From NCBI GenBank assembly GCA_934621385.1, contig CAKTUI010000004.1:18451-82450 (forward strand): a stretch of DNA of 64,000 nucleotides, written 5' to 3'. Shown here one piece after another: positions 7,125 through 57,027 of this stretch (positions are counted from its first letter, which is position 1; every line of letters starts with the position of its first letter). A program made the position numbers and the translations under genes. The notes beneath the pieces were generated by a model. The model was not told where the DNA came from and ran no database searches. It was given only the letters and a program-made list of their open reading frames with translations. The DNA is from an uncultured Kiritimatiellota bacterium. GTDB lineage: Bacteria > Verrucomicrobiota > Kiritimatiellia > RFP12 > UBA1067.

Positions 7125-7157
7125 ATTTCCGTGTGCCGCGTAAAGGGGGCAACCGCT

Positions 7158-7452
7158 TGCTCGGGGGCTTGCGCGAAGCTGCCGCTCGGTCTCGGCTTCC
7201 ACGGCTGCGCTCACCTCTCACGCGTCGACAACAGAGTCTTCTTAGCCTATCCTACCTCGGCGACTATCACTGGTTGCGGACGAGACAACTCTTACGGTGG
7301 CGCCCCGTGGAAGACCTCACTCGCGACACTTCGCGCACACCCCCTCGCCCGAGAGGGGGGACAGGCCGACTACAGGCCGGAACACAGCAAATGGTCTTGT
7401 CGGCCTGCCGTCCGGCAGGCTCCCGGCCTTCCTCAAGTGCCGCGCCTGCGCC
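7158..7452. repeat. Intergenic ~290-bp repeat family, copy 1
   Basis: Aligns by eye with 15225-15460 and 17941-18229. Shared blocks: TGCTCGGGGGCTTGCGCG, CCTCGGCGACTATCACTGGTTGCGGACG, CTYCTACGGYGGCG, CTCGCCCGAGAGG, CTGCCGTCCGGCAG, GCCGCGCCYGCGCC. Confidence 0.7.
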
Positions 7453-7518
7453 ATCTGAACGCCGACGCTGTGTGGCTTTCCTCCGCTCTTCTGCCCCCCC
7501 TTCCAAGCGCGGCAGATT

Positions 7519-7550
7519 GCGGGGTTCGGGGACGCAGTCCCCGTCCCTTC
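7519..7550. repeat. Short hairpin repeat GCGGRGGTTCGGGGnCnCAGTCCCCnTCCYTTC, copy 1
   Basis: GCGGGGTTCGGGGACGCAGTCCCCGTCCCTTC, stem GGGGAC/GTCCCC (7528-7542). Near-identical copies at 18828-18858 and 36267-36297. Confidence 0.5.
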
Positions 7551-7656
7551 GACTGAACTATTCGAAGGCTTCCATCCCCCCTACCCCCGAACCGTCGGCT
7601 GTCATCCGAGCGCGCAGCAGACTCGGCTTCCTCGGTTACTCCCCTCGCAACGGAAT

Positions 7657-7782
7657 TCCGATGCCCGTCGGACGATTTTCTGATGCCCGTCGGAAAAATT
7701 TCTGATGGGCATCGGAAAGTGCTCTGATGGTCATCGGACAGCCCTGTGATGGGCATCGGGACAGAATCCGACCGAGGTAACG
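7657..7782. repeat. Array a: 5.5 tandem units of the 16-bp palindrome TCYGATG-NN-CRTCGGA at exactly 22-bp spacing
   Basis: Units at 7657-7672, 7679-7694, 7701-7716, 7723-7738 and 7745-7760, plus a half-site at 7767-7773. Dyad centres are 22 bp apart and the 6-bp spacers are unrelated. Confidence 0.85.
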
Positions 7783-8025
7783 CTTTTGCGTCCCGCCGCG
7801 ACTTCAGGAACGACACCCCTGTCGGTCTCCGAAACATCAACAGAACAACCGAATCCGAAAAGAATCCCATGATTGCGACTTCCCCTTCCCACCTGCGCTT
7901 TTACCTTATTATAGAGGAGTACTCGTTTCATTCCTCAATCCCCATGCTTCCCGCACCTTCCCACGGTTGAGCATCTTCGCCCCTCAGACGCCCCCGAGAA
8001 CGAAGCCAAAGACACTGTTTGCCCA

Positions 8026-8055
8026 TTGACAGCAAACGACCAGTTTTGATAGACT
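8026..8055 (+). promoter_or_regulatory. Sigma-70-type promoter of the leu operon
   Basis: TTGACA (8026-8031), 18-nt spacer, TAGACT (8050-8055) preceded by TGA (extended -10-like). Lies 26 nt upstream of the leader ORF. Confidence 0.55.
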
Positions 8056-8080
8056 ATGCGCCGTTGTTGAAGGACTGAAC

Positions 8081-8176
8081 ATGAACGACGCGAACATCAC
8101 AACGCTCTTCCTTCTTGGAAGCCTTGGTCTCGAGCTTACTCAGCGCGGGGCGCGCTCGGTTTTGTGAGGTTTTCGA
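8081..8176 (+). promoter_or_regulatory. Candidate leucine leader peptide plus terminator-like hairpin (attenuator) upstream of leuA
   Basis: uORF 8081-8167 = MNDANITTLFLLGSLGLELTQRGARSVL, with 6 Leu in an 11-codon stretch. Hairpin AGCGCG-GGG-CGCGCT (8142-8156) is followed by GGTTTTGTGAGGTTTTC. Confidence 0.4.
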
Positions 8177-8248
8177 CAACCATGACAAACCACGGCAAGC
8201 GACCCCGCTCGAAAGAGAGGGGTTGTTTTGTATAAGAAAAGAGATACA

Positions 8249-15215: not shown

Positions 15216-15224
15216 CAAACCGCC

Positions 15225-15460
15225 TGCTCGTGGGTTTGCGCAAAGCTGCCGCTCGGTCTCGGCTGCCCTGCCTCGGCGGTTATCACTGGTTGCGAACGGA
15301 GACCACTCCTACGGCTGCGAGCCGCACCGCACCTCTCGTGCGACCGCCGCGCGCGCCCCCTCACCCGAGAGGAAGGGCAAGCCGCACACAGGCACCACAC
15401 GGCAGAAGGTTCTGCCGGCCTGCCGTCCGGCAGGCCCCGCCCATTCAGCCTGCCGCGCTC
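15225..15460. repeat. Intergenic ~290-bp repeat family, copy 2 (internal ~45-bp deletion relative to copies 1 and 3)
   Basis: TGCTCGTGGGTTTGCGCAAAGCTGCCGCTCGGTCTCGGC...CCTCGGCGGTTATCACTGGTTGCGAACGG...CTCACCCGAGAGG...CTGCCGTCCGGCAGG...CTGCCGCGCTC. Same orientation as the other copies. Confidence 0.7.
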
Positions 15461-17940: not shown

Positions 17941-18229
17941 TGCTCGGGGGCTTGCGCGGCGGCTCGCCCGACCCGGATGCGGCGGCAATCTCGCAACGCC
18001 TTTCACGCGTCGACAAGCAGCTTCACTGAGTCTGCCCTGCCTCGGCGATTATCACAGGTTGCGGACGGTGACCTCTCCTACGGCGGCGAGTCGCACCGCA
18101 CCTCTCGTGCGACCACCGCGCTCACCCCACTCGCCCGAGAGGAGGAACAGGCCGGCTACAGGTGGAACGCGGTAGATGGTTTTACCAGTCTGCCGTCCGG
18201 CAGACCACACAAACTGCCGCGCCCGCGCC
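17941..18229. repeat. Intergenic ~290-bp repeat family, copy 3
   Basis: TGCTCGGGGGCTTGCGCGGCGG...TTCACGCGTCGACAAGCAG...CCTCGGCGATTATCACAGGTTGCGGACGG...CTCCTACGGCGGCGAG...CTCGCCCGAGAGG...CTGCCGTCCGGCAG...CTGCCGCGCCCGCGCC. Confidence 0.7.
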
Positions 18230-18411
18230 TACACAACGCCTGCGCGGCGCGGCGGTTTGCGCTTTGCTTTGCCGCAAGGAGCGCAAAGACCCCAAAGATG
18301 CCGAAGACCCCATCCCCATTTTCCCTGCGACCTTTGCGTCCCCTGCGGCTAAAACCACCCTCCCCCTTTCCGTGCGCTCCGCGTGTTCCGTGGTTCGTCC
18401 AACCCGCCCCC

Positions 18412-18440
18412 TTGCAACCGGCGCGGCGAAATGGTACAAT
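18412..18440 (+). promoter_or_regulatory. Strong sigma-70-type promoter of orphan unit A
   Basis: TTGCAA (18412-18417), 17-nt spacer, TGG-TACAAT (-10 at 18435-18440). Same architecture as the unit B promoter at 55028-55056. Confidence 0.55.
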
Positions 18441-18827
18441 CGCGCCATCTTGTCCGACGGAGGACTCCCTCTTCAACGAACGGAGGACCCCGCCCAGCGC
18501 AACAAGAGAAAGGCCGGCGCAATGGATAATTATGCGGCACCGGCGGAAGTGGATGGGCGCGCTGCCGGCGGGACGATTAGACGGTCGGACGGGATGACAT
18601 CACGCGAAGCGCCGGCAGGGCCGGCGGGAAGGATTGACCATGTCGACGAAGGAAAGTCGTTTGAAGGAAAGTTGTTTTGCATGGGCGGACGTTCGGGGGG
18701 ACTCCGGAGCCCCAGCTGGGGCGCATGCGTTCCGCCGCGAGGGGACGCGGGGAGACGCACGCACAAAAGCGCCGCGCTTGCGCCTTCAAAACGCCTACGC
18801 GGTGGGGCTTCGCTCCGCCGTTCTCAA

Positions 18828-18858
18828 GCGGAGGTTCGGGGGCTCAGTCCCCCTTCGC
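18828..18858. repeat. Short hairpin repeat GCGGRGGTTCGGGG...GTCCCC, copy 2 (inside unit A)
   Basis: GCGGAGGTTCGGGGGCTCAGTCCCCCTTCGC. Compare 7519-7550 and 36267-36297. Confidence 0.5.
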
Positions 18859-19006
18859 CCCCAGCCTTGCCCGCAAGCCCCTTGCATGCGCCGCGATTGC
18901 GCGGGACGGGCCGTGCGCGGCAAGTAAATCCGCCCCACGGCGGGCCGCCTGAGGGGCACTTGCGCATCCGCAGCGCGGCGGACGCGCACTGCCGTCACCG
19001 CAGAAC

Positions 19007-19041
19007 GGGCGGGGGAGCTGTCCCCCGCCCGCCTTCTTTTG
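19007..19041 (+). terminator. Rho-independent terminator of unit A
   Basis: GGGCGGGGGA-GCTG-TCCCCCGCCC (perfect 10-bp stem) followed by GCCTTCTTTTG. Confidence 0.6.
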
Positions 19042-19322: not shown

Positions 19323-19332
19323 ATTTGCCGTC

Positions 19333-19418
19333 GCTTCGGGTGCCTAAGCGCATGGTGCGCCTCGGCTGAGAAAAACCGATAGAACCTGAACGGGGTAATG
19401 CCCGCGTAGGAAAGGACA
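19333..19418 (+). promoter_or_regulatory. TPP (THI-box) riboswitch
   Basis: CTTCGGGTGCC...GGCTGAGAAAAACCGATAGAACCTGAACGGGGTAATGCCCGCGTAGGAAAGG matches the conserved THI-element cores (GGGUGC, CUGAGA, ACCUGA, UAAUNCC, GCGUAGGRA). It sits directly upstream of thiC and its 3' arm overlaps the AAAGGA ribosome-binding region. Confidence 0.8.
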
Positions 19419-19424
19419 GGACGC

Positions 19425-20729
19425 ATGACACAACTGGAAGCGGCCCGCAAGGGCCTGGTGACCGAGGCGATGAAAATCGTCGCGGCGGACGAGGGAATTG
19501 ATGCGGAGACCGTGCGAGTCGCCGTCGTACGCGGCGAGGCCGTCATCCCGCTGAACATCCACCACACAAACGCACAGCCCATTGGGGTCGGCCGACTCTT
19601 CCGCACGAAGATCAACGCGAATCTCGGCCGGAGCGTGACACATTCAGGCAAGGGAGACGAACTGGAGAAACTCGCCATCGCACTTAAGGCGGGAGCCGAC
19701 TTCATCATGGATCTTTCGGTTGGCTCGGATGACCTCAAGTCCATTCGACAGGGCTTGCTTGACGCGAGCGACCGTCCGCTCGGCACCGTCCCCGTCTACG
19801 AGACGATCTCCCGGCTCGAAGGCGACATCCCGCACATGGATCCATCCTTTCTGCTGGACGTCATCCGCGCACAGGCCGAACAGGGCGTTGACTTCATGAC
19901 GCTTCACGCCGGTCTTCTGCGGGCGGCCATCCCTCTCGCGATGAAGCGCAAGATGGGCATCGTCAGCCGAGGCGGCTCGATTATGGCCGAATGGATGATG
20001 GCCAACAACCGCGAGAATCCCCTGTACGAAAAGTGGGACGAGGTCCTCGACATTCTCGTCCAGCACGATGTCACCGTCTCTCTCGGCGACGGCCTGCGTT
20101 CCGGCTGTCTGGCGGATGCCTCGGATGCCGCGCAATTCGCTGAACTGGATGTGCTGGGCGAGCTGGTTGAGCGTTGCCGTGCGCGTGGCGTTCAGGTGAT
20201 GGTGGAAGGACCGGGCCACATCCCCTTCAACGAAATTCAGATGAATATGGAGCGCGAGCAGAAAGTCTGCAAGGATGCTCCCTTCTACGTGCTTGGTCCC
20301 GTCGTTACGGATGTCGCGCCCGGCTACGACCACATCGTCTCGGCGATTGGCGCAACGGCGGCGGCGACCTACGGGGCTTCGCTTCTCTGCTATGTCACGC
20401 CCGCCGAACACCTTGGACTTCCCGATGCCGACGAGGTGCATCGCGGCTGTATCGCCTCCCGCATCGCCGCGCATGCGGGTGATGTCGCCCGTGGACTGAA
20501 GGGTGCGCGGACACAAGACGACGCGATGGCCGATGCGCGGCGAAACTTCTGCTGGGACGAACAGTTTGCGGCATCGCTCGACCCCGAGCATGCGCGGACA
20601 CGCTGGCTGAAGACGCGGGCGCTCACCGATGCCGACCATGGCGACGACCACTGCTCAATGTGCGGCAAGCAGTTCTGCGCCGTGCGCACGTCACGCCGCA
20701 TACGCGACCTCGCGGCGAAAAGCCTCTGA
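19425..20729 (+). CDS. thiC: Phosphomethylpyrimidine synthase (short, ~430-aa form)
   Basis: IPLNIHHTNAQPIGVG, TKINANLG, MVEGPGHIP and C-terminal CSMCGKQFCA Fe-S motif. Confidence 0.9.
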   Translation: MTQLEAARKGLVTEAMKIVAADEGIDAETVRVAVVRGEAVIPLNIHHTNAQPIGVGRLFRTKINANLGRSVTHSGKGDELEKLAIALKAGADFIMDLSVGSDDLKSIRQGLLDASDRPLGTVPVYETISRLEGDIPHMDPSFLLDVIRAQAEQGVDFMTLHAGLLRAAIPLAMKRKMGIVSRGGSIMAEWMMANNRENPLYEKWDEVLDILVQHDVTVSLGDGLRSGCLADASDAAQFAELDVLGELVERCRARGVQVMVEGPGHIPFNEIQMNMEREQKVCKDAPFYVLGPVVTDVAPGYDHIVSAIGATAAATYGASLLCYVTPAEHLGLPDADEVHRGCIASRIAAHAGDVARGLKGARTQDDAMADARRNFCWDEQFAASLDPEHARTRWLKTRALTDADHGDDHCSMCGKQFCAVRTSRRIRDLAAKSL

Positions 20730-36198: not shown

Positions 36199-36266
36199 CA
36201 GGCCGCATATTATACTCTTTCTCGGGCAGAACTGCCGCGCGCGCACCTTTAGAACGCCTCTCCCAC

Positions 36267-36297
36267 GCGGAGGTTCGGGGCGCAGTCCCCGTCCTTC
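36267..36297. repeat. Short hairpin repeat GCGGRGGTTCGGGG...GTCCCC, copy 3
   Basis: GCGGAGGTTCGGGGCGCAGTCCCCGTCCTTC. Compare 7519-7550 and 18828-18858. Confidence 0.5.
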
Positions 36298-53001: not shown

Positions 53002-53967
53002 TCACTCGTGATTGAAGAGATCGTTGATGGACTCGTTCATGTGCGTACGCTTGATGGCCTCGCCAATCAGCGGCGCAACGGAAAGCTGGGTCAGCTTGAA
53101 CGGCAGCTTCGAGGGGTCGAAGCCCTTGCGGAGCGGAATCGAGTCCGTCACGACAAGTTCGTCCAGCTGGGTCTCATGGGTGAGGCGGTCAACGCCCTTC
53201 TCGGTCAGCGGGAAGTGCGAGACGAAGGCGTGGACGCTCTTCGCACCGTTGTCGCGGCACATCTTGGCCGCCGCGCTCAGCGTACCGCCCGTCGCCGTCA
53301 TGTCGTCGACCATGATGACGTCGCAATCCTTCACGTCGCCGACCACGCTGAACGCGTCGACGGTCGAGTCGCCCGTGCGCTGCTTGGCGACGATGGCCAG
53401 CCCGCAACCAATCTTGCGGCTGTAGCCGTAGGCCGTCTTCGCCCCGCCGGTATCCGGCGAAACGACGACCGGCTTCGCCCAGTGCTGGTCGCGGATGTAC
53501 TTGAGAATGACCGGTTCCGCCCGCAGGTGGTCGAGCGGGATGTCGAAGAAACCCTGAATCTGGTTCGCGTGCAAGTCCATCGTCAGTACGCGATCCGCAC
53601 CGGCCGTCTGGAGGAGGTTCGCAATCAGCCGCGCCGTAATCGGCACGCGGGGCTGATCCTTGCGATCCTGCCGCGCATAGCCGTAGTAGGGCAACACGGC
53701 CGTAATGCGGGCCGCCGAACCGCGCTTGAGCGCATCCATAATGACGAACAGCTCCATATAGGCTTCGTTCGGCTGGGGCGAACCCGACTGAATCACGAAC
53801 ACGTCCTTGCCACGCACGGGGTCGAGGACCTGACAGAAGGTCTCCCCGTCCGGGAAGTGCTTGATGTCAATCTTGTTCAGCGGCTTGCCGAGATAGTTCG
53901 CCACCTTTTCGGCCAGCGGCAGGTTCGCCGTGCCCGAAAACACCATGAAGTCATTAGAGTCGCTCAT
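53002..53967 (-). CDS. prs: Ribose-phosphate pyrophosphokinase
   Basis: ORF 53002..54228 trimmed to the ATG at 53967 (MSDSNDFMVFSGTANLPLAEKVA). PYYGYARQDRK, DLHANQIQGFFD and VIMVDDMTATGGTL. The upstream part of the track ORF is only a translation of array c. Confidence 0.9.
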   Translation of the reverse strand: MSDSNDFMVFSGTANLPLAEKVANYLGKPLNKIDIKHFPDGETFCQVLDPVRGKDVFVIQSGSPQPNEAYMELFVIMDALKRGSAARITAVLPYYGYARQDRKDQPRVPITARLIANLLQTAGADRVLTMDLHANQIQGFFDIPLDHLRAEPVILKYIRDQHWAKPVVVSPDTGGAKTAYGYSRKIGCGLAIVAKQRTGDSTVDAFSVVGDVKDCDVIMVDDMTATGGTLSAAAKMCRDNGAKSVHAFVSHFPLTEKGVDRLTHETQLDELVVTDSIPLRKGFDPSKLPFKLTQLSVAPLIGEAIKRTHMNESINDLFNHE

Positions 53968-53997
53968 TGTCAGAAATACCTTTCGGTTGGTTGGGAT

Positions 53998-54006
53998 ATT
54001 ATACCA
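53998..54006 (-). promoter_or_regulatory. Extended -10 promoter (TGGTATAAT on the minus strand) for prs
   Basis: Reverse complement of 53998-54006 is TGGTATAAT, 30 nt upstream of the prs ATG. The context TTTGTGGTATAATAT is identical to the galE promoter. Confidence 0.5.
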
Positions 54007-54075
54007 CAAAATTCGATTGCACGGGGCGGGAGCTTGCGCGGCGGAAAGTGGAAGATGCCGCGAGATAGCTCGTTC

Positions 54076-54428
54076 TTCTGCACGGAGGACGAATTCGCTT
54101 CTCCGGGCAGAAGCGTTTCCCTTCTCCGTGACGAGCGAGTCCCGCCCTCCGTGCAGAAGCGTTCCGTTCTCCGTGGAGAGGCGTTCCGTCCCTTCGGGAA
54201 GAAGCGTTTCCCTCTCCGTGCAGACCATTTCTCGTCATCGCGGAGAAGCACTGTGCCTCTACACGGGGAGGCCTTGCCAACTCTGCACGGAGAACGCGTC
54301 GGTTCTACACGAAGAACGGAACGCTTCTACACGGAGAAAGTGTCAAGTCAACACGGAGAACAAAGCGATTCTACACGAAGAAAAAACCAAGTCTCCGTGT
54401 AGAAGGGAAACCGTTCTCCGTGTAGACT
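54076..54428. repeat. Array c: 16 units of the 14-bp motif TTCTCCGTGCAGAA / TTCTRCACGGAGAA at 22-24-bp spacing, with orientation blocks
   Basis: Motif centres: 54082.5(F), 54105.5, 54128.5, 54151.5, 54173.5, 54196.5, 54218.5 (all R), 54240.5, 54263.5, 54287.5, 54309.5, 54331.5, 54353.5, 54375.5 (all F), 54397.5, 54421.5 (R). Spacers are variable. Confidence 0.85.
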
Positions 54429-54443
54429 TCGCCGCGATGCGGA

Positions 54444-54480
54444 CAAAAAAAGAGCGGGCGCGGTCACGACCGCCGCGCCG
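54444..54480 (-). terminator. Rho-independent terminator of unit B
   Basis: The minus strand reads GGCGCGGCGGTCGTGACCGCGCC (GC-rich hairpin) followed by CGCTCTTTTTTTG. It lies 19 nt after the unit B stop codon. Confidence 0.6.
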
Positions 54481-54498
54481 GGCCTGCCGCCCTGCGCC

Positions 54499-54846
54499 TT
54501 AGGCGGCCGCCGACACGGCCGTGCGGCCCGTGACGCTGACGGCGCCGTCCCCCACGCCCGAGGGCGTGCGGAGCGTCATCCAAATCCCTGCGCCCGCTGG
54601 CGTCTCCCCGTGTGCGGACGGGAAGGCGAACGCGGCGAAAGCGCAAGTGGGACTTGTGAGCGGCGGCGCCTCCCCGCGCAAGGACGGGAAGTCGAACCCC
54701 CGGGTCTCCGGGGAAGTCCTCGGCTGGTGACGGTGCACGCATCGGCACGCCCCTTCCGCGGCGGCGTGGTTGGCGAGACGTGTTCCGGCGGCCGACGGAC
54801 CGAGATCCGCCGCGCACCCCATCTGATGTTCCGACTTTAAAGTCAT
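54499..54846 (-). CDS. Hypothetical 115-aa Ala/Pro/Gly-rich protein (unit B)
   Basis: GAGGAGG 7 nt upstream of the ATG at 54846. About 80% of codons end in G/C by hand count. Stop TAA is followed at once by the terminator. Has its own promoter. Contains an internal 22-aa repeat (FDFPSLRGEAPP / FAFPSAHGETPA). No recognisable domain. The antisense frame shares third positions, so the periodicity alone does not fix the strand. Confidence 0.4.
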   Translation of the reverse strand: MTLKSEHQMGCAADLGPSAAGTRLANHAAAEGACRCVHRHQPRTSPETRGFDFPSLRGEAPPLTSPTCAFAAFAFPSAHGETPAGAGIWMTLRTPSGVGDGAVSVTGRTAVSAAA

Positions 54847-55027
54847 TCCTGGTCCTCCTCTACGGATTCTCCTGTCCCCCGCACGACCCTTGGGCACGCA
54901 CCCAACGACGGGCGCACGGGGAGTGTCGGCATCAATTACGACCCTCGCAGCGACTCATAAAATCGACTGCTGACGAGGCGGTCTCACCGTGATTTCGAGT
55001 GGAAACTCACTCCTGCCAACGCCCGCA

Positions 55028-55056
55028 ATTGTACCAAATCCCCGTCCGTTTTGCAA
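55028..55056 (-). promoter_or_regulatory. Strong sigma-70-type promoter of unit B
   Basis: On the minus strand: TTGCAA (55056-55051), 17 nt, TGG-TACAAT (-10 at 55033-55028). It predicts a ~175-nt 5' leader before the ATG at 54846. Confidence 0.55.
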
Positions 55057-55104
55057 GGGGGGGGGGTGCCGCCGTGCGCGGAATTCACGGCGGCGATTCC
55101 GTGT

Positions 55105-57027
55105 TTACCGCTGCGGACCGCCCGGGATTTCGCGCAACTCGCCGGGTGCAAGCGTCAGGGTCTGACCCCGGAATATGACCGTGCGCGGCGAAATGCAGTC
55201 CGTATTCAGCAAATACGCCCGATCGCCGTAGACGCTCCAGTTGATGTAATCCCTGTCGGGGCCCGCCACGTGCTCGCCCTGCACGCCCCCGAGCACACCC
55301 GTGAGGAGCGTCTTCCAGAACGCAAGCCGGAAGCCCGCCCGATAGGACGGGAACTCCTCCATCTCGCGCCGCGCCGCCGGATAGTCCCAGGCAAGGCAGA
55401 GCCAGTACGTCCCCTTCCCGTGGCGAACCTTCACGAGATAGGGCTTCTTGCCGAGCGTCGCGACCGCCTGCGCATTCGCCCCCAAGTCCGCGTCGGCCAC
55501 GCGCAACTTGACCGAGAGATGCGCCGGGTACGCCGCCTTGAGGAAGTCGGGCGTCGCGTCATTCGTCATGAGAATGTCCTCAATCAGTTCCGGGGACTTC
55601 ACGGTCACGCCCGGCACGGCCTGCACGAGATCCGCCGCCGTGTAGTTCGCATACTCGCGGTCGAGCCGCGCCGACAGCTGCGGAACGGTCAGGACGACCG
55701 TGCCGCCCTGGGCGACGTAGTCCCGGAGCGTCGCGGCAATCTTCGGTGTCATCGTGTTCCAGCCGCCGAAGGCCACGGCCTTGTAGCGCGCCAGATGCCG
55801 CACCGTCAGCGCATCGTCCGCATTCACCACGTCGAGCTGTCCGTAGGGCGTACCGCCCAGCCAGCCGTTCGCATAGGGCTTCAGGCAGTCGGTCGGACGC
55901 GGGAAGAACGTCTCCATCACCGCCTCCCAGGTGAATTCGGGTGCGCCGACCTTCCAGTTCGCATTCGTCTTCGCGAGATGGTGCTGACCGTAGATGGCGA
56001 AGATGTCGTGCGTCATGCCGACGTAGCCGTCGTAGTTGCCGATGAGCAGCGCGGCCTCGACATGCGGCGTTCCCTTCGCACGCGGATGCGCCTTCGTCCA
56101 CTGGTAGAACTCCTTCATCGTGCGCCGGTAGGCCTTCGGCACGTCGCCGTCATACCCCTGCTTCGGAGTCTTGAATTCGGCCATCGTGCCGTCCGGCGGC
56201 GTGTAGTCCTGGGCCTGAGTGGACTGCGAACCCGACTCCAGCACCATCATTCCCGTGCCCATGAGCCACATTTCCTTCAGACCGATGAGGAGCGAGTCGT
56301 ACTTCTGCTTCACGCCATAGGGGACGCGTGGCCAGCAGGTCTGCCACTCGTGCGCAAGCCACGCGCTCCACCAGTCGCCGCCGCGCCGCCGCGAGGCCCC
56401 ACGCGCCTCGGCCGTCGCATACGCCAGGTTGCCGCATCCGACCGCATACATCTCGTTGCAGATGTAGTCGATGCCGCCATCCAGCTCGTAGCAGGCGAGC
56501 GGCGAACCCGACGTCGAGAAGACGTTCGGCTCGCGCTCATCGGCCGGACGCGCCAACTGGTTCTTCTTCGGCGCGGCGAGCATCTTGCCGACGAGCCAGT
56601 CGTGCGCCTCCTTCAAATCGCGGCACTTCGGCCAGTCCTTGAAGTAGCTCTTCTCGTCCTGGTAGAGAAAGCCCGCATATTCGCCGATGTTGTTGCCGAG
56701 GTAAAGCGGACCCCACGCCTTGCGGAGTTCCTTCGTCCGCGCCCCGCTCTGGTCGCCGTAGATGGTCATCACGTGGATGTTGTTCGCCTTCGCCCAACGG
56801 TACCAGTCCTTGCCAATCTTCTCGGGCAGCAGGTTCTCGCTCTTCGCCCACTGCACCCAGAGATTGCATTCGTCGTTCGTCATCAGTTCGCGGTACTCGG
56901 GACTCGTCCCGTAGCCCGTCACCCCGACGAGGATGTCGTTGCCGACGACGGGACACCTCGTCGCCGCGCAAAGCGCCGCGCCGAGCGCGGTGGAAAGAAT
57001 GGTCAGTATCAGTTTTGGCGGTCTCAT
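55105..57027 (-). CDS. Secreted protein of an unassigned GH-like family (putative clan GH-A barrel plus GH42-like C-terminal module)
   Basis: Signal peptide MRPPKLILTILSTALGAALCAA. GGIDYICNEMYAVG (NE), AHEWQT, KQKYDSLL, MMVLESGSQ (E), GGTPYGQLDV and FGGWNTMTP. Colinear with the C-terminal 640 aa of the neighbouring giant protein. Confidence 0.5.
   Translation of the reverse strand: MRPPKLILTILSTALGAALCAATRCPVVGNDILVGVTGYGTSPEYRELMTNDECNLWVQWAKSENLLPEKIGKDWYRWAKANNIHVMTIYGDQSGARTKELRKAWGPLYLGNNIGEYAGFLYQDEKSYFKDWPKCRDLKEAHDWLVGKMLAAPKKNQLARPADEREPNVFSTSGSPLACYELDGGIDYICNEMYAVGCGNLAYATAEARGASRRRGGDWWSAWLAHEWQTCWPRVPYGVKQKYDSLLIGLKEMWLMGTGMMVLESGSQSTQAQDYTPPDGTMAEFKTPKQGYDGDVPKAYRRTMKEFYQWTKAHPRAKGTPHVEAALLIGNYDGYVGMTHDIFAIYGQHHLAKTNANWKVGAPEFTWEAVMETFFPRPTDCLKPYANGWLGGTPYGQLDVVNADDALTVRHLARYKAVAFGGWNTMTPKIAATLRDYVAQGGTVVLTVPQLSARLDREYANYTAADLVQAVPGVTVKSPELIEDILMTNDATPDFLKAAYPAHLSVKLRVADADLGANAQAVATLGKKPYLVKVRHGKGTYWLCLAWDYPAARREMEEFPSYRAGFRLAFWKTLLTGVLGGVQGEHVAGPDRDYINWSVYGDRAYLLNTDCISPRTVIFRGQTLTLAPGELREIPGGPQR

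Follow-up and report, generated by a model that had tools for sequence, protein, structure and literature searches.

The phased palindrome array upstream of prs in a gut Kiritimatiellae species belongs to a lineage-specific non-coding cassette and may be a row of operators

In an uncultured Kiritimatiellae species of the human gut, sixteen short quasi-palindromes follow one another at intervals of about two helical turns in front of prs. What is such an array doing between the terminator of one transcription unit and the promoter of a housekeeping gene? An earlier note on this DNA had compared the layout to the iteron and centromere arrays of plasmids and chromosomes. We followed the array through the 64-kb window (the whole stretch of DNA analysed), through other contigs of the same species, and into a sister species and more distant relatives. 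The features of the locus are as follows.

53002 to 53967, minus strand: prs, encoding ribose-phosphate pyrophosphokinase (321 aa); pth, hydF and a PHP-domain gene come after it
53998 to 54006, minus strand: TGGTATAAT, the extended -10 of the prs promoter; the last unit starts 83 bp upstream of it
54043 to 54061, minus strand: conserved right end of the cassette, GCGGCATCTTCCACTTTCC, common to cassette copies L055 and L079
54076 to 54427, no strand assigned: array c, 16 units of the 14-bp quasi-palindrome TTCTCCGTGYAGAA with 8-10-bp spacers; units start at 54076, 54099, 54122, 54145, 54167, 54190, 54212, 54234, 54257, 54281, 54303, 54325, 54347, 54369, 54391 and 54414
54139 to 54336, no strand assigned: inverted duplication within array c, arms 54147-54179 and 54304-54336, 91% complementary including the spacers
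54443 to 54482, minus strand: 3' end of unit B in the window copy, a GC-rich hairpin and a T7 run
54443 to 55021, minus strand: unit B, non-coding, about 0.6 kb, strongly promoted; its 5' 330 nt are nearly invariant in orthologues and paralogues
55028 to 55056, minus strand: unit B promoter, TTGCAA-17-TACAAT with a TG extension, at the left end of the cassette
55057 to 55066, minus strand: poly-C tract (G10 on the plus strand), directly adjoining the -35 element

The array is genuine and regularly spaced. With up to three mismatches allowed, TTCTCCGTGYAGAA has 28 matches in the window against 8.1 +/- 3.0 in shuffled sequence (28 was reached in 0 of 100 shuffles), and half of them (14/28) fall within 54076-54427; two degenerate units, at 54190-54203 and 54234-54247, occupy the remaining phase positions and complete the sixteen copies that the earlier note had counted. 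Start-to-start distances are 23, 22, 22, 22, 22, 22, 24, 23, 22, 22, 23, 22, 23, 23 and 23 bp (mean 22.5 bp), so that of the range of 21 to 24 bp, mostly 22 or 23, given in that note, 22 to 24 stands and 21 does not occur. Tandem Repeats Finder (TRF) detects the repeat at periods of 22, 23, 44 and 45 (scores 83-155); it was used in place of our own strict palindrome-chain detector, which proved too stringent, missing known arrays and returning one unrelated match at 39385-39491. The orientation blocks had been read correctly as one forward copy, six reverse (copies 2-7), seven forward (8-14) and two reverse (15-16) on the plus strand, which in gene orientation gives blocks of 2, 7, 6 and 1 with no alternation of successive units. 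The placement between the unit B terminator and the prs promoter was also right (prs starts at 53967 and its -10 lies at 54006-53998, both on the minus strand), as was the view that the long open reading frames called here are translations of the repeat, since Prs homologues are about 321 aa long and start at 53967. The core-like 14-mers that had been seen in units A and B, by contrast with these claims, are at chance level (2 matches with up to two mismatches against 1.04 expected; 28 of 100 shuffles equal this). Intrinsic curvature from phased A/T patches was considered and rejected, the Fourier power at 22.5, 11.25 and 10.5 bp being no greater than in random windows.

Array c supplies the tandem repeats of a non-coding cassette, about 1.05 kb long, that is specific to this lineage. 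In order, the cassette comprises the poly-C tract, the strong promoter, unit B, an intrinsic terminator, an array of 13-16 units and the short conserved right end. It sits in co-directional intergenic regions, just after the 3' end of a gene, with 70-90 bp between it and the extended -10 of the next gene; the interval separating the last unit from that -10 varies among copies (71, 83 and 91 bp). Arrays of this type, c, and of the variant type e described below always lie between a unit B terminator upstream and a promoter downstream, and no promoter is predicted inside array c. In most same-species contigs a canonical terminator (11-bp stem and T7) immediately precedes the array; the window copy carries a 28-nt deletion inside it. 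The poly-C tract is 5-10 or more residues long among strains, and homology between alternative left flanks begins there. Those flanks differ between strains, with the breakpoint at the unit B promoter, outside the array: beyond unit B lie two large proteins without Pfam domains here and a glycosyltransferase cluster in other strains.

Unit B itself resembles no catalogued family. A known RNA is ruled out by the lack of an Rfam match: against Rfam 15 the interval 53900-55150, which covers array and unit B, gave nothing better than E = 0.33, to spurious eukaryotic lncRNA and miRNA models. (The sole Rfam match at gathering score in the window is a TPP riboswitch at 19326-19429.) We also rejected the idea that unit B encodes a protein that binds the array. 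Its 115-codon open reading frame has atypical codon-position GC, is frameshifted in L004 and L062, has no Pfam match, and does not co-vary with the switch from c-type to e-type cores; a protein search with it returned only 15 closely related clusters.

Within this species the cassette is fixed upstream of prs. Array c is present in 9/9 other same-species contigs, drawn from several metagenome studies, and in most strains it stays at 16 units; of the seven contigs that span it whole, two (L007/L008) are two units (45 bp) short. In a sister species at 93% DNA identity, prs has no array, and homology with that array-less locus restarts at the cassette right end (54043-54061). There, unit B and an array stand instead upstream of secA, of rpsP-rplS and of a gene encoding a 777-aa protein, as well as at additional contig ends; the genome has at least three array-bearing loci plus three unit B copies. 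No array was found upstream of prs in four more distant Kiritimatiellae lineages, and the extended -10 is the sole upstream feature kept in them. The array is thus dispensable for prs expression, and we rejected a regulatory element specific to prs.

No copy of TTCTCCGTGYAGAA with up to two mismatches lies outside array c in the window or in the flanks of the sister-species loci. A scan of a genome collection recovered real arrays only in one sister-species MAG, the remaining matches being single chance hits; two JGI metagenome scans, one for a 21-mer of unit B and one for a pattern of two array units, gave no matches, a protein search with the array translation returned only two near-identical entries, and a literature search found nothing relevant.

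Each unit divides into a core and a spacer. The core residues C3, C6, G7, G9, G12 and A13 do not vary across the 16 units; information reaches 1.0-2.4 bit at 12 core positions and 0.4-0.5 bit at the remaining two of the 14, against 0.1-0.5 bit per position in the spacers. The spacers had been described as not conserved, which holds for their near-random composition, with the qualification that GCGTTCCG/GCGTTTCC and its complement recur in several of them. Among nine same-species contigs, polymorphic sites make up 12/224 core positions (5.4%) and 16/128 spacer positions (12.5%; Fisher p = 0.023), with core positions 1, 3, 6, 9, 12 and 13 showing none, although these counts are small and third codon positions of prs (3.1% variable) vary even less than the cores. 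The lower polymorphism of the cores favours sequence-specific protein binding. The core is a weak palindrome with 4-6-bp arms: four of six mirrored position pairs are complementary, and the sister-species core reads TTCTAC-GT-GTAGAA.

The same period recurs elsewhere with other sequences. Three additional arrays at 22-23 bp, built of other palindromes, lie upstream of leuA, mfd, prs and unit B; two of them are located as follows.

7656 to 7760, no strand assigned: array a, five units of TTCYGATGSSCRTCGGA at 22-23 bp, two forward and three reverse
37067 to 37170, no strand assigned: array b, three units of ACTTACTGNGCAGTAAGT at 22 bp, with a-type units on its flanks

Array a occupies the leuA/TPR intergenic region and is conserved in seven strains, one of which (L089) is short of one 22-bp unit; array b forms a 51-nt inverted repeat upstream of mfd. 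Both are palindromic overall. In all, five arrays with cores of 12 to 18 bp keep a period of 21-24 bp. One sister-species copy of the cassette carries the e-type core TCTCCCAAAGAA, altered at the centre and about one base shorter than the c-type, at the same 22-23-bp period and almost wholly in direct orientation. Within it lies a four-unit higher-order repeat with identical cores and unrelated spacers, which is not what uniform neutral decay of a duplicated 22-mer would produce. The arrays change by loss and gain of whole units and by inverted duplication.

The reading we prefer, tentatively and at somewhat less than an even chance, is that array c is a row of operators: 14-bp quasi-palindromes for a candidate sequence-specific DNA-binding protein, carried in the lineage cassette. 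Each quasi-palindrome would be bound by such a protein, most simply a dimer of the helix-turn-helix (HTH) type. The two-helical-turn spacing would place bound proteins roughly on one face of the DNA and allow contacts between neighbours, as in the lambda and 434 operators and in iterons, so that the roughly 350 bp separating a heavily transcribed unit from the promoter that follows might be coated. The most likely consequence would be a boundary, a roadblock or an upstream platform acting on the flanking transcription units. We favour operators because the array is real and regular, because its cores are far better conserved than its spacers both within the array and between strains (the constraint to be looked for in phased multiple operators), because the quasi-palindromic geometry, the period kept across five arrays and the fixed terminator-array-promoter position all agree with them, and because the array is retained in nine other same-species contigs with no covariation that would favour an RNA structure.

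Phage operators offer a similar geometry: lambda OR1-3 and OL1-3 and the 14-bp sites of 434 are, like the units here, quasi-palindromes of 14-17 bp whose centres lie 22-24 bp from one another. Sites so arranged allow HTH dimers to share one DNA face and cooperate; the likeness to array c is geometric only. Phage operators come in threes, overlapping promoters and beside the repressor gene, whereas the cassette arrays have 13-16 sites, 70-450 bp upstream of the promoter, with no repressor gene adjacent. Several observations count against operators. No regulator gene travels with the cassette in the contexts examined, and the conserved asymmetric C5, G7 and T8 are not what a symmetric homodimer needs. 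As the e-type core is altered, no one protein can recognise every array, and several would be needed. The genes that follow arrays (prs, secA, rpsP, leuA and mfd) make up no obvious regulon; the spacing to the -10 is not fixed, nor are the polymorphism counts large; and relatives manage without an array at prs.

It is tempting to speculate further that the arrays represent a new class of cis element in gut Kiritimatiellae: strictly phased (22-23 bp), fast-evolving arrays of quasi-palindromes, each with its own putative DNA-binding protein, that would form nucleoprotein boundaries of about 100-350 bp upstream of promoters. The c and e arrays would be packaged with a strongly expressed non-coding RNA of about 0.6 kb as a 'terminator-insulator-promoter' cassette that copies and moves, rewiring the upstream regions of housekeeping genes. 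We regard this proposal as unlikely.

The main rival to operators is a self-amplifying palindromic minisatellite without host function, a mosaic repeat of the REP/BIME or NIME kind. We find this a serious account, on balance a somewhat less likely one. The array would grow by slippage, unequal exchange and fold-back duplication, and be a passive passenger whenever the cassette is copied or intergenic regions are reshuffled by recombination; the homogeneity of its cores would come from amplification or conversion (template switching at palindromes, or a nuclease or transposase that recognises the core) and not from binding that benefits the host. Much of the variation described above fits well: indels of whole units (45 bp in L007/L008 array c, 22 bp in L089 array a), higher-order repeats of 44/45 bp and of four units, an inverted duplication that takes in the spacers, and a complete turnover of the core from c-type to e-type within one cassette family. 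The arrays are lineage-restricted, and two species with 93% identity carry them at different loci. In this genome the intergenic regions are mosaics that include other repeated modules, and synteny breaks coincide exactly with these regions. Read across the spacer, the sister-species unit becomes GTAGAA-N8-TTCTAC, and REPs typically begin with GTAG.

The comparison with dispersed repeats holds in part. E. coli REP/BIME, Neisseria dRS3/NIME and Stenotrophomonas SMAG elements are likewise clustered short imperfect palindromes in extragenic DNA, lineage-specific, combined with other modules and associated with rearrangements and assembly breaks, and the spacer-centred GTAGAA-N8-TTCTAC resembles both their GTAG-headed hairpin and the 6-8-6 layout of dRS3. 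Those families, however, number hundreds of dispersed copies, in alternating orientation or with long inter-repeat units and mostly at gene 3' ends, whereas here every copy belongs to a strict 22-23-bp array, arranged in blocks and placed upstream of promoters; unlike REPs, no isolated core (up to two mismatches) lies outside the arrays in the window or in the flanks of the sister-species loci. Nor was a RAYT (Y1 transposase) or recombinase gene identified in the window and the fragments of related contigs that were read. The GTAG-headed reading fits c-type units only, in which the core palindrome is weak, and GTAG is missing from the a, b, d and e cores. Bacterial VNTRs and minisatellites such as MIRU share with array c the gain and loss of units between strains and the higher-order repeats; array c differs in its mostly stable copy number, in core conservation that far exceeds that of the spacers, and in having both orientations. 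For a minisatellite, moreover, the contrast between core and spacer demands an additional, unspecified core-specific mechanism. CRISPR arrays are different again: their direct repeats, 23-55 bp long and all in one orientation, alternate with unique spacers of comparable length and are accompanied by a leader and cas genes; here a 14-bp repeat is separated by 8-10 bp, both orientations occur and the neighbouring genes include no cas gene.

We think it quite unlikely that the array acts as a single-stranded nucleic acid, through read-through from unit B into three long imperfect hairpins, or through cruciforms in DNA; a folded array of this kind might serve as a back-up terminator, an insulator or an RNase III substrate. 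The pairing of opposed blocks that the earlier note had raised is strongly predicted, with three fold-back modules, the largest centred on the inverted duplication, and an energy of -193 kcal/mol (z = -8.9 for RNA, z = -10.9 for DNA). Spacers of opposed blocks are complementary, arrays a and b share the overall palindromic form, and the 28-nt deletion in the window terminator could permit read-through. Evolution gives this fold no backing. Compensatory change is found in 2 pairs, against 31 that depart only by broken pairs, a result equalled by 47 of 500 shuffles; two-unit deletions in one arm (L007/L008, L050) break the symmetry; and the e-type array is nearly all in direct orientation. Most strains have a strong terminator before the array, and no internal promoter is predicted. 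A conserved long RNA hairpin was rejected despite its thermodynamic strength, since covariation does not exceed that of shuffles and the indels fall asymmetrically.

We give little credence to recombinase sites, in which the junctions between blocks would be lox-like and the other units accessory arms, together mobilising or rearranging the cassette. The X-to-Y and Y-to-X junctions do consist of a 14-bp arm, an 8-bp spacer and an inverted 14-bp arm, and the position of the cassette differs between sister species, as its left flanks do between strains. Yet no recombinase gene lies in or beside any cassette copy, the alternative left flanks diverge at the unit B promoter and not in the array, array orientation is not polymorphic among the nine other same-species contigs, and the rearrangements are accounted for just as well by homologous recombination between 1-kb repeats.

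A role in replication or segregation is unlikely, and the proposal from which we started, an iteron or centromere array for replication initiation, copy control or partition, is barely credible in the absence of the genes and signals that should accompany it. Its architectural half stands: a conserved core, variable spacers, a period near two helical turns and opposed blocks are all present, with 16 tandem units at a mean of 22.5 bp as in iterons and a cluster of repeated palindromic sites as in centromeres. The functional half does not. The neighbours are prs, pth, hydF and unit B, with no adjacent rep or par genes, and neither parA/parB nor parM/parR occurs within 10 kb in any of ten contexts examined. 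No DnaA box lies within 9 kb, the nearest TTATCCACA (up to one mismatch) being at 44072 and the window total at chance. GC content is 0.64 (0.61-0.66 over the interval 53-56 kb) with no AT-rich stretch, cumulative GC skew runs monotonically through the window without a switch, and there is no similarity to plasmids or phages. By inspection, both the half-sites and the centre of the parS consensus TGTTTCACGTGAAACA differ from the core TTCTCCGTGYAGAA and the sister core TTCTACGTGTAGAA. The cassette is multi-copy on the sister-species chromosome, where one locus per replicon would be expected, and the array is absent at prs in that species and in distant relatives.

Set beside known systems, the resemblance is of layout. 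Plasmid iterons (R6K gamma-ori, RK2 oriV, pSC101, P1 incA/incC) share the tandem sites of about 22 bp, the conserved core and the variable spacer; in some systems inverted copies are added, and certain arrays titrate or 'handcuff' their protein. Iterons occur once per replicon, accompanied by a rep gene, DnaA boxes and an AT-rich unwinding element; none of this applies here, where quasi-palindromic units belong to a multi-copy chromosomal cassette between a terminator and a housekeeping promoter. Partition centromeres (F sopC, 12 x 43 bp with a 7-bp inverted repeat; R1 parC, 10 x 11 bp in two blocks; the pSM19035 omega heptads) are also long arrays of short, often palindromic sites in direct and inverted blocks, which form a nucleoprotein filament and sometimes lie at promoters. 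They are always linked to parAB, parMR or the omega operon on a plasmid; the array here has several chromosomal copies and no such link.

Should the operator reading be right, the protein-coated boundaries would be a bacterial counterpart of terminator/insulator arrays between tandem transcription units, and would show an uncultured gut lineage building and moving upstream regulatory DNA. Selfish minisatellites would still be useful as markers of rearrangement breakpoints. Under either reading, the array c locus should carry no origin or centromere annotation. The arrays also leave traces in public data: they break short-read MAG assemblies, several contigs ending within the array, and they yield false open reading frames of 90-190 aa, as well as a 408-aa 'Prs' already present in public protein sets.

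Array c, the 16-unit palindrome repeat between the terminator of unit B and the prs promoter, is strictly phased, and its cores are constrained relative to its spacers. With up to three mismatches allowed, TTCTCCGTGYAGAA matches the 64-kb window 28 times, against 8.1 ± 3.0 in dinucleotide shuffles, and 14 of these 28 matches fall in the 352-bp stretch 54076-54427. Two degenerate units (54190-54203 and 54234-54247) lie exactly in phase, so that direct reading of the window bears out the sixteen copies described in an earlier note, together with their orientation blocks on the plus strand (one forward, six reverse, seven forward, two reverse); the core-like 14-mers said to continue into unit B and unit A are at chance level. 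Unit starts are 22-24 bp apart (mean 22.5 bp); TRF reports a period of 22/23, and scores 44/45 higher. When the units are aligned in one orientation, C3, C6, G7, G9, G12 and A13 show no variation among the 16. Information content is 1.0-2.4 bit at 12 of the 14 core positions and 0.4-0.5 bit at the other two (10 and 14), against 0.1-0.5 bit at each flanking spacer position. The core, TCTnC-GT-GnAGA, is quasi-palindromic, and its asymmetric centre is conserved. The array is bordered by these features:

53967, minus strand: start of prs, then pth, hydF and a PHP-domain gene
54006-53998, minus strand: extended -10 of the prs promoter (TGGTATAAT); the last array c unit starts 83 bp away
55056-55028, minus strand: unit B promoter, TTGCAA-17-TACAAT, preceded by a poly-C tract

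The body of unit B, about 0.6 kb and GC-rich, ends in a hairpin and a run of T; most same-species contigs have a canonical terminator here (11-bp stem, T7), abutting array c. The window copy is shorter by 28 nt of terminator, a deletion (window 54452-54470) that removes the canonical hairpin there, in contig L005 and apparently in L009. Because its 115-codon ORF has atypical codon-position GC, is frameshifted in two copies and has no Pfam match, and because Rfam gave no match for unit B, we treat the unit as non-coding. The ORF belongs to only 15 near-identical clusters among 5.8 billion proteins, JGI metagenomes gave no unit B match, and the unit is confined to the species of the window and its sister species. 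An indel of 66 nt in unit B (window 54599-54697) has the 10-bp direct repeat CTTCCCGTCC on either side; the window has this segment and four strains lack it. The homopolymer abutting the -35 (55057-55066, G10 on the plus strand, poly-C on the unit B strand) differs in length between contigs of the species, with about 5 bases at the least and 10 or more at the most, and could be a slippage-prone tract; it is also the left homology boundary of the cassette formed by unit B and the array.

The long ORFs over array c are translations of the repeat, as the earlier note held; Prs homologues have about 321 aa. Public gene calls contain false array-translated proteins, such as a 408-aa 'Prs' and ORFs of 93-190 aa, and many short-read contigs stop inside or at the edge of the array (L080-L084 at their 3' ends, L009 and L010 at their 5' ends, and L015, L055, L059 and L062).

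Prs homologues are named as Kiritimatiellae, and the contigs derive from human-gut metagenomes. Ten contigs encode an identical Prs. Across prs-PHP, the four same-species contigs compared are 98.5-99.5% identical to the window; the tenth Prs-identical contig, L003 (MAG GCA_050874585.1), is 93% identical, which places its MAG in a sister species. Array c is present in nine of nine same-species contigs, two of which begin at or within it; five of the seven that span it have 16 units, and the other two lack two units (45 bp). Among nine window-species sequences (the window and eight contigs), polymorphic sites number 12 of 224 in the cores versus 16 of 128 in the spacers (Fisher p = 0.023), with zero polymorphism at the invariant core positions. 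Array c changes through gain or loss of whole units, duplication of several units together, and inverted duplication. On the left side of the unit B promoter, some strains carry two large proteins without Pfam domains and others a glycosyltransferase cluster after a short array of another palindrome, and homology begins exactly at the poly-C/-35 element. Same-species synteny breaks exactly at repeat-rich intergenic regions, upstream of leuA (L092 against window 7222-8227) and upstream of unit B (L001, L002, L005 and L008 against window 55070 onward).

Array c and unit B travel together in one cassette of about 1 kb. A scan for two adjacent units, in one genome per species, turned up real arrays in the sister-species MAG alone; every other match was single and due to chance. 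In that MAG the unit B terminator and array c lie upstream of secA (L050; gene identified by Pfam), array c recurs upstream of rpsP-rplS (L015) and at a third locus (L055), and two more unit B paralogues (L059, L062) are at contig ends starting in the array. Each copy has the same layout, from the 3' end of the upstream gene through the unit B promoter, unit B, terminator, array and a short conserved right end to the extended -10 of the next gene; the arrays in these copies have 13-14 units. Another unit B copy, on the prs contig of this MAG, keeps the same unit B and right end, with array c replaced by an array of e-type cores. The sister-species prs itself is preceded by neither unit B nor array c, having instead a four-unit array of TCTCGTGCGCATCAGA-like palindromes, and in Kiritimatiellae that are more distant (Prs 87-94% identical) the region upstream of prs is short and lacks any array; array c is accordingly not a prs-specific regulator. 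In some window-species strains a TCTCGTGCGCATCAGA-like array precedes the unit B promoter, and in the sister species such an array stands immediately before prs, which suggests that the DNA between this array and the prs promoter has gained or lost unit B and array c. Array c has phased counterparts with other cores in the window and in related contigs:

7656-7760: array a, five TTCYGATGSSCRTCGGA units (2 forward, 3 reverse), upstream of the leuA operon
37067-37170: array b, three ACTTACTGNGCAGTAAGT units with flanking a-type units, upstream of mfd
L001 8826-8905 and L003 9728-9808: d-type arrays, four TCTCGTGCGCATCAGA-like units each, 22-23-bp period
L079 4448-4679: e-type array, 11 TCTCCCAAAGAA units spaced 21-23 bp start to start, the first inverted and the other 10 direct

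The five core types (a to e) measure 12-18 bp and all keep a period of 21-24 bp, in promoter-bearing intergenic regions ahead of functionally unrelated genes. Array a is kept in seven strains, one of them without one unit. The e-type array has a four-unit (about 88 bp) higher-order repeat, with identical cores and unrelated spacers. A literature search found no comparable array described for Kiritimatiellae. The architecture is a variant of iteron- or operator-like phased arrays and of intergenic mosaic repeats; its unusual features are the constant period across unrelated cores and the packaging with a promoter-RNA-terminator unit. The structure is real, odd and lineage-restricted, and any function is putative.

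The constraint on cores relative to spacers would most simply be explained by sequence-specific binding of a putative protein. A layout of 14-18-bp quasi-palindromes centred every 22-24 bp has the geometry of the cooperative HTH operators of lambda and 434, and likewise that of plasmid iterons. If occupied, 13-16 such sites in a row would coat about 350 bp between the heavily transcribed unit B and the next promoter, and we tentatively favour a role of array c as a boundary, roadblock or upstream platform. Protein binding leaves the conserved core asymmetry unexpected for a homodimer, would need more than one putative binding protein given the switch from c to e cores, and must allow for relatives that do without the array at prs. 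Chief among the alternatives is a self-amplifying minisatellite of palindromes, similar to BIME or NIME mosaics; it fits the visibly mosaic intergenic regions of this genome, and we consider it rather unlikely. An RNA or cruciform function is improbable. The hairpin envisaged by the earlier note stands as a prediction, in that a single strand of array c gives three long fold-back modules (z = -8.9 and -10.9); these are dictated by the block structure, and a conserved RNA hairpin finds no support in covariation, with two predicted pairs showing compensatory change versus 31 departing by broken pairs only, a pattern equalled by shuffles in 47 of 500 trials, and with unit deletions that hit one arm only. 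Recombinase sites are slightly less probable again. The iteron or centromere proposed from sequence is very improbable, since we found no rep or par genes, DnaA boxes nearby, AT-rich region, GC-skew switch or plasmid or phage similarity, and the cassette is multi-copy. With its 14-bp repeats, 8-10-bp spacers and mixed orientation array c is not a CRISPR, and a simple spectral test gave no support for curvature from phased A/T patches.

Other repeated modules occur in the window and in related contigs. One of them, GGCCTGCCGGACGGCAGGCC...GCGCAAGCCCCCGAGCA, is conserved and non-coding, measures about 200-300 nt, has no Rfam match at gathering score and appears to represent a second repeated family of upstream or promoter modules. 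In the two copies with a clear junction it ends directly at an extended -10 (TGGTATAAT) and precedes a GDP-mannose-dehydratase-like gene and a POR-like gene; the remaining copies are upstream of a GH95 gene, a TPR gene and a unit B copy. Short modules, AAxTGCCGCGCxxGCxCC...AACGCC and GGTTCGGGGxxCAGTCCCC, are scattered in long intergenic regions, sometimes beside arrays.

7151-7450, 15218-15440 and 18026-18210, minus strand; L003 2700-3040; L079 3340-3610: GGCCTGCCGGACGGCAGGCC...GCGCAAGCCCCCGAGCA module
7435-7546, 18212-18257, 18767-18856 and 36230-36294; L055 1-100: short repeated modules

Unit A (18410-19040, plus strand), another non-coding unit, has a promoter (CCCCCTTGCAA-17-TACAAT) of almost the same type as the unit B promoter, a terminator-like hairpin near 19005-19040 and a body unrelated to unit B. 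A TPP riboswitch (57.9 bit; 19326-19429, plus strand) lies directly upstream of thiC (19425-20729). Two neighbouring large ORFs without a Pfam domain, on the minus strand at 55105-57027 (640 aa) and 57044-63139 (2031 aa), have several segments in common at 73-80% identity, offset by about 1.8 kb, and are therefore paralogous or internally repeated proteins.
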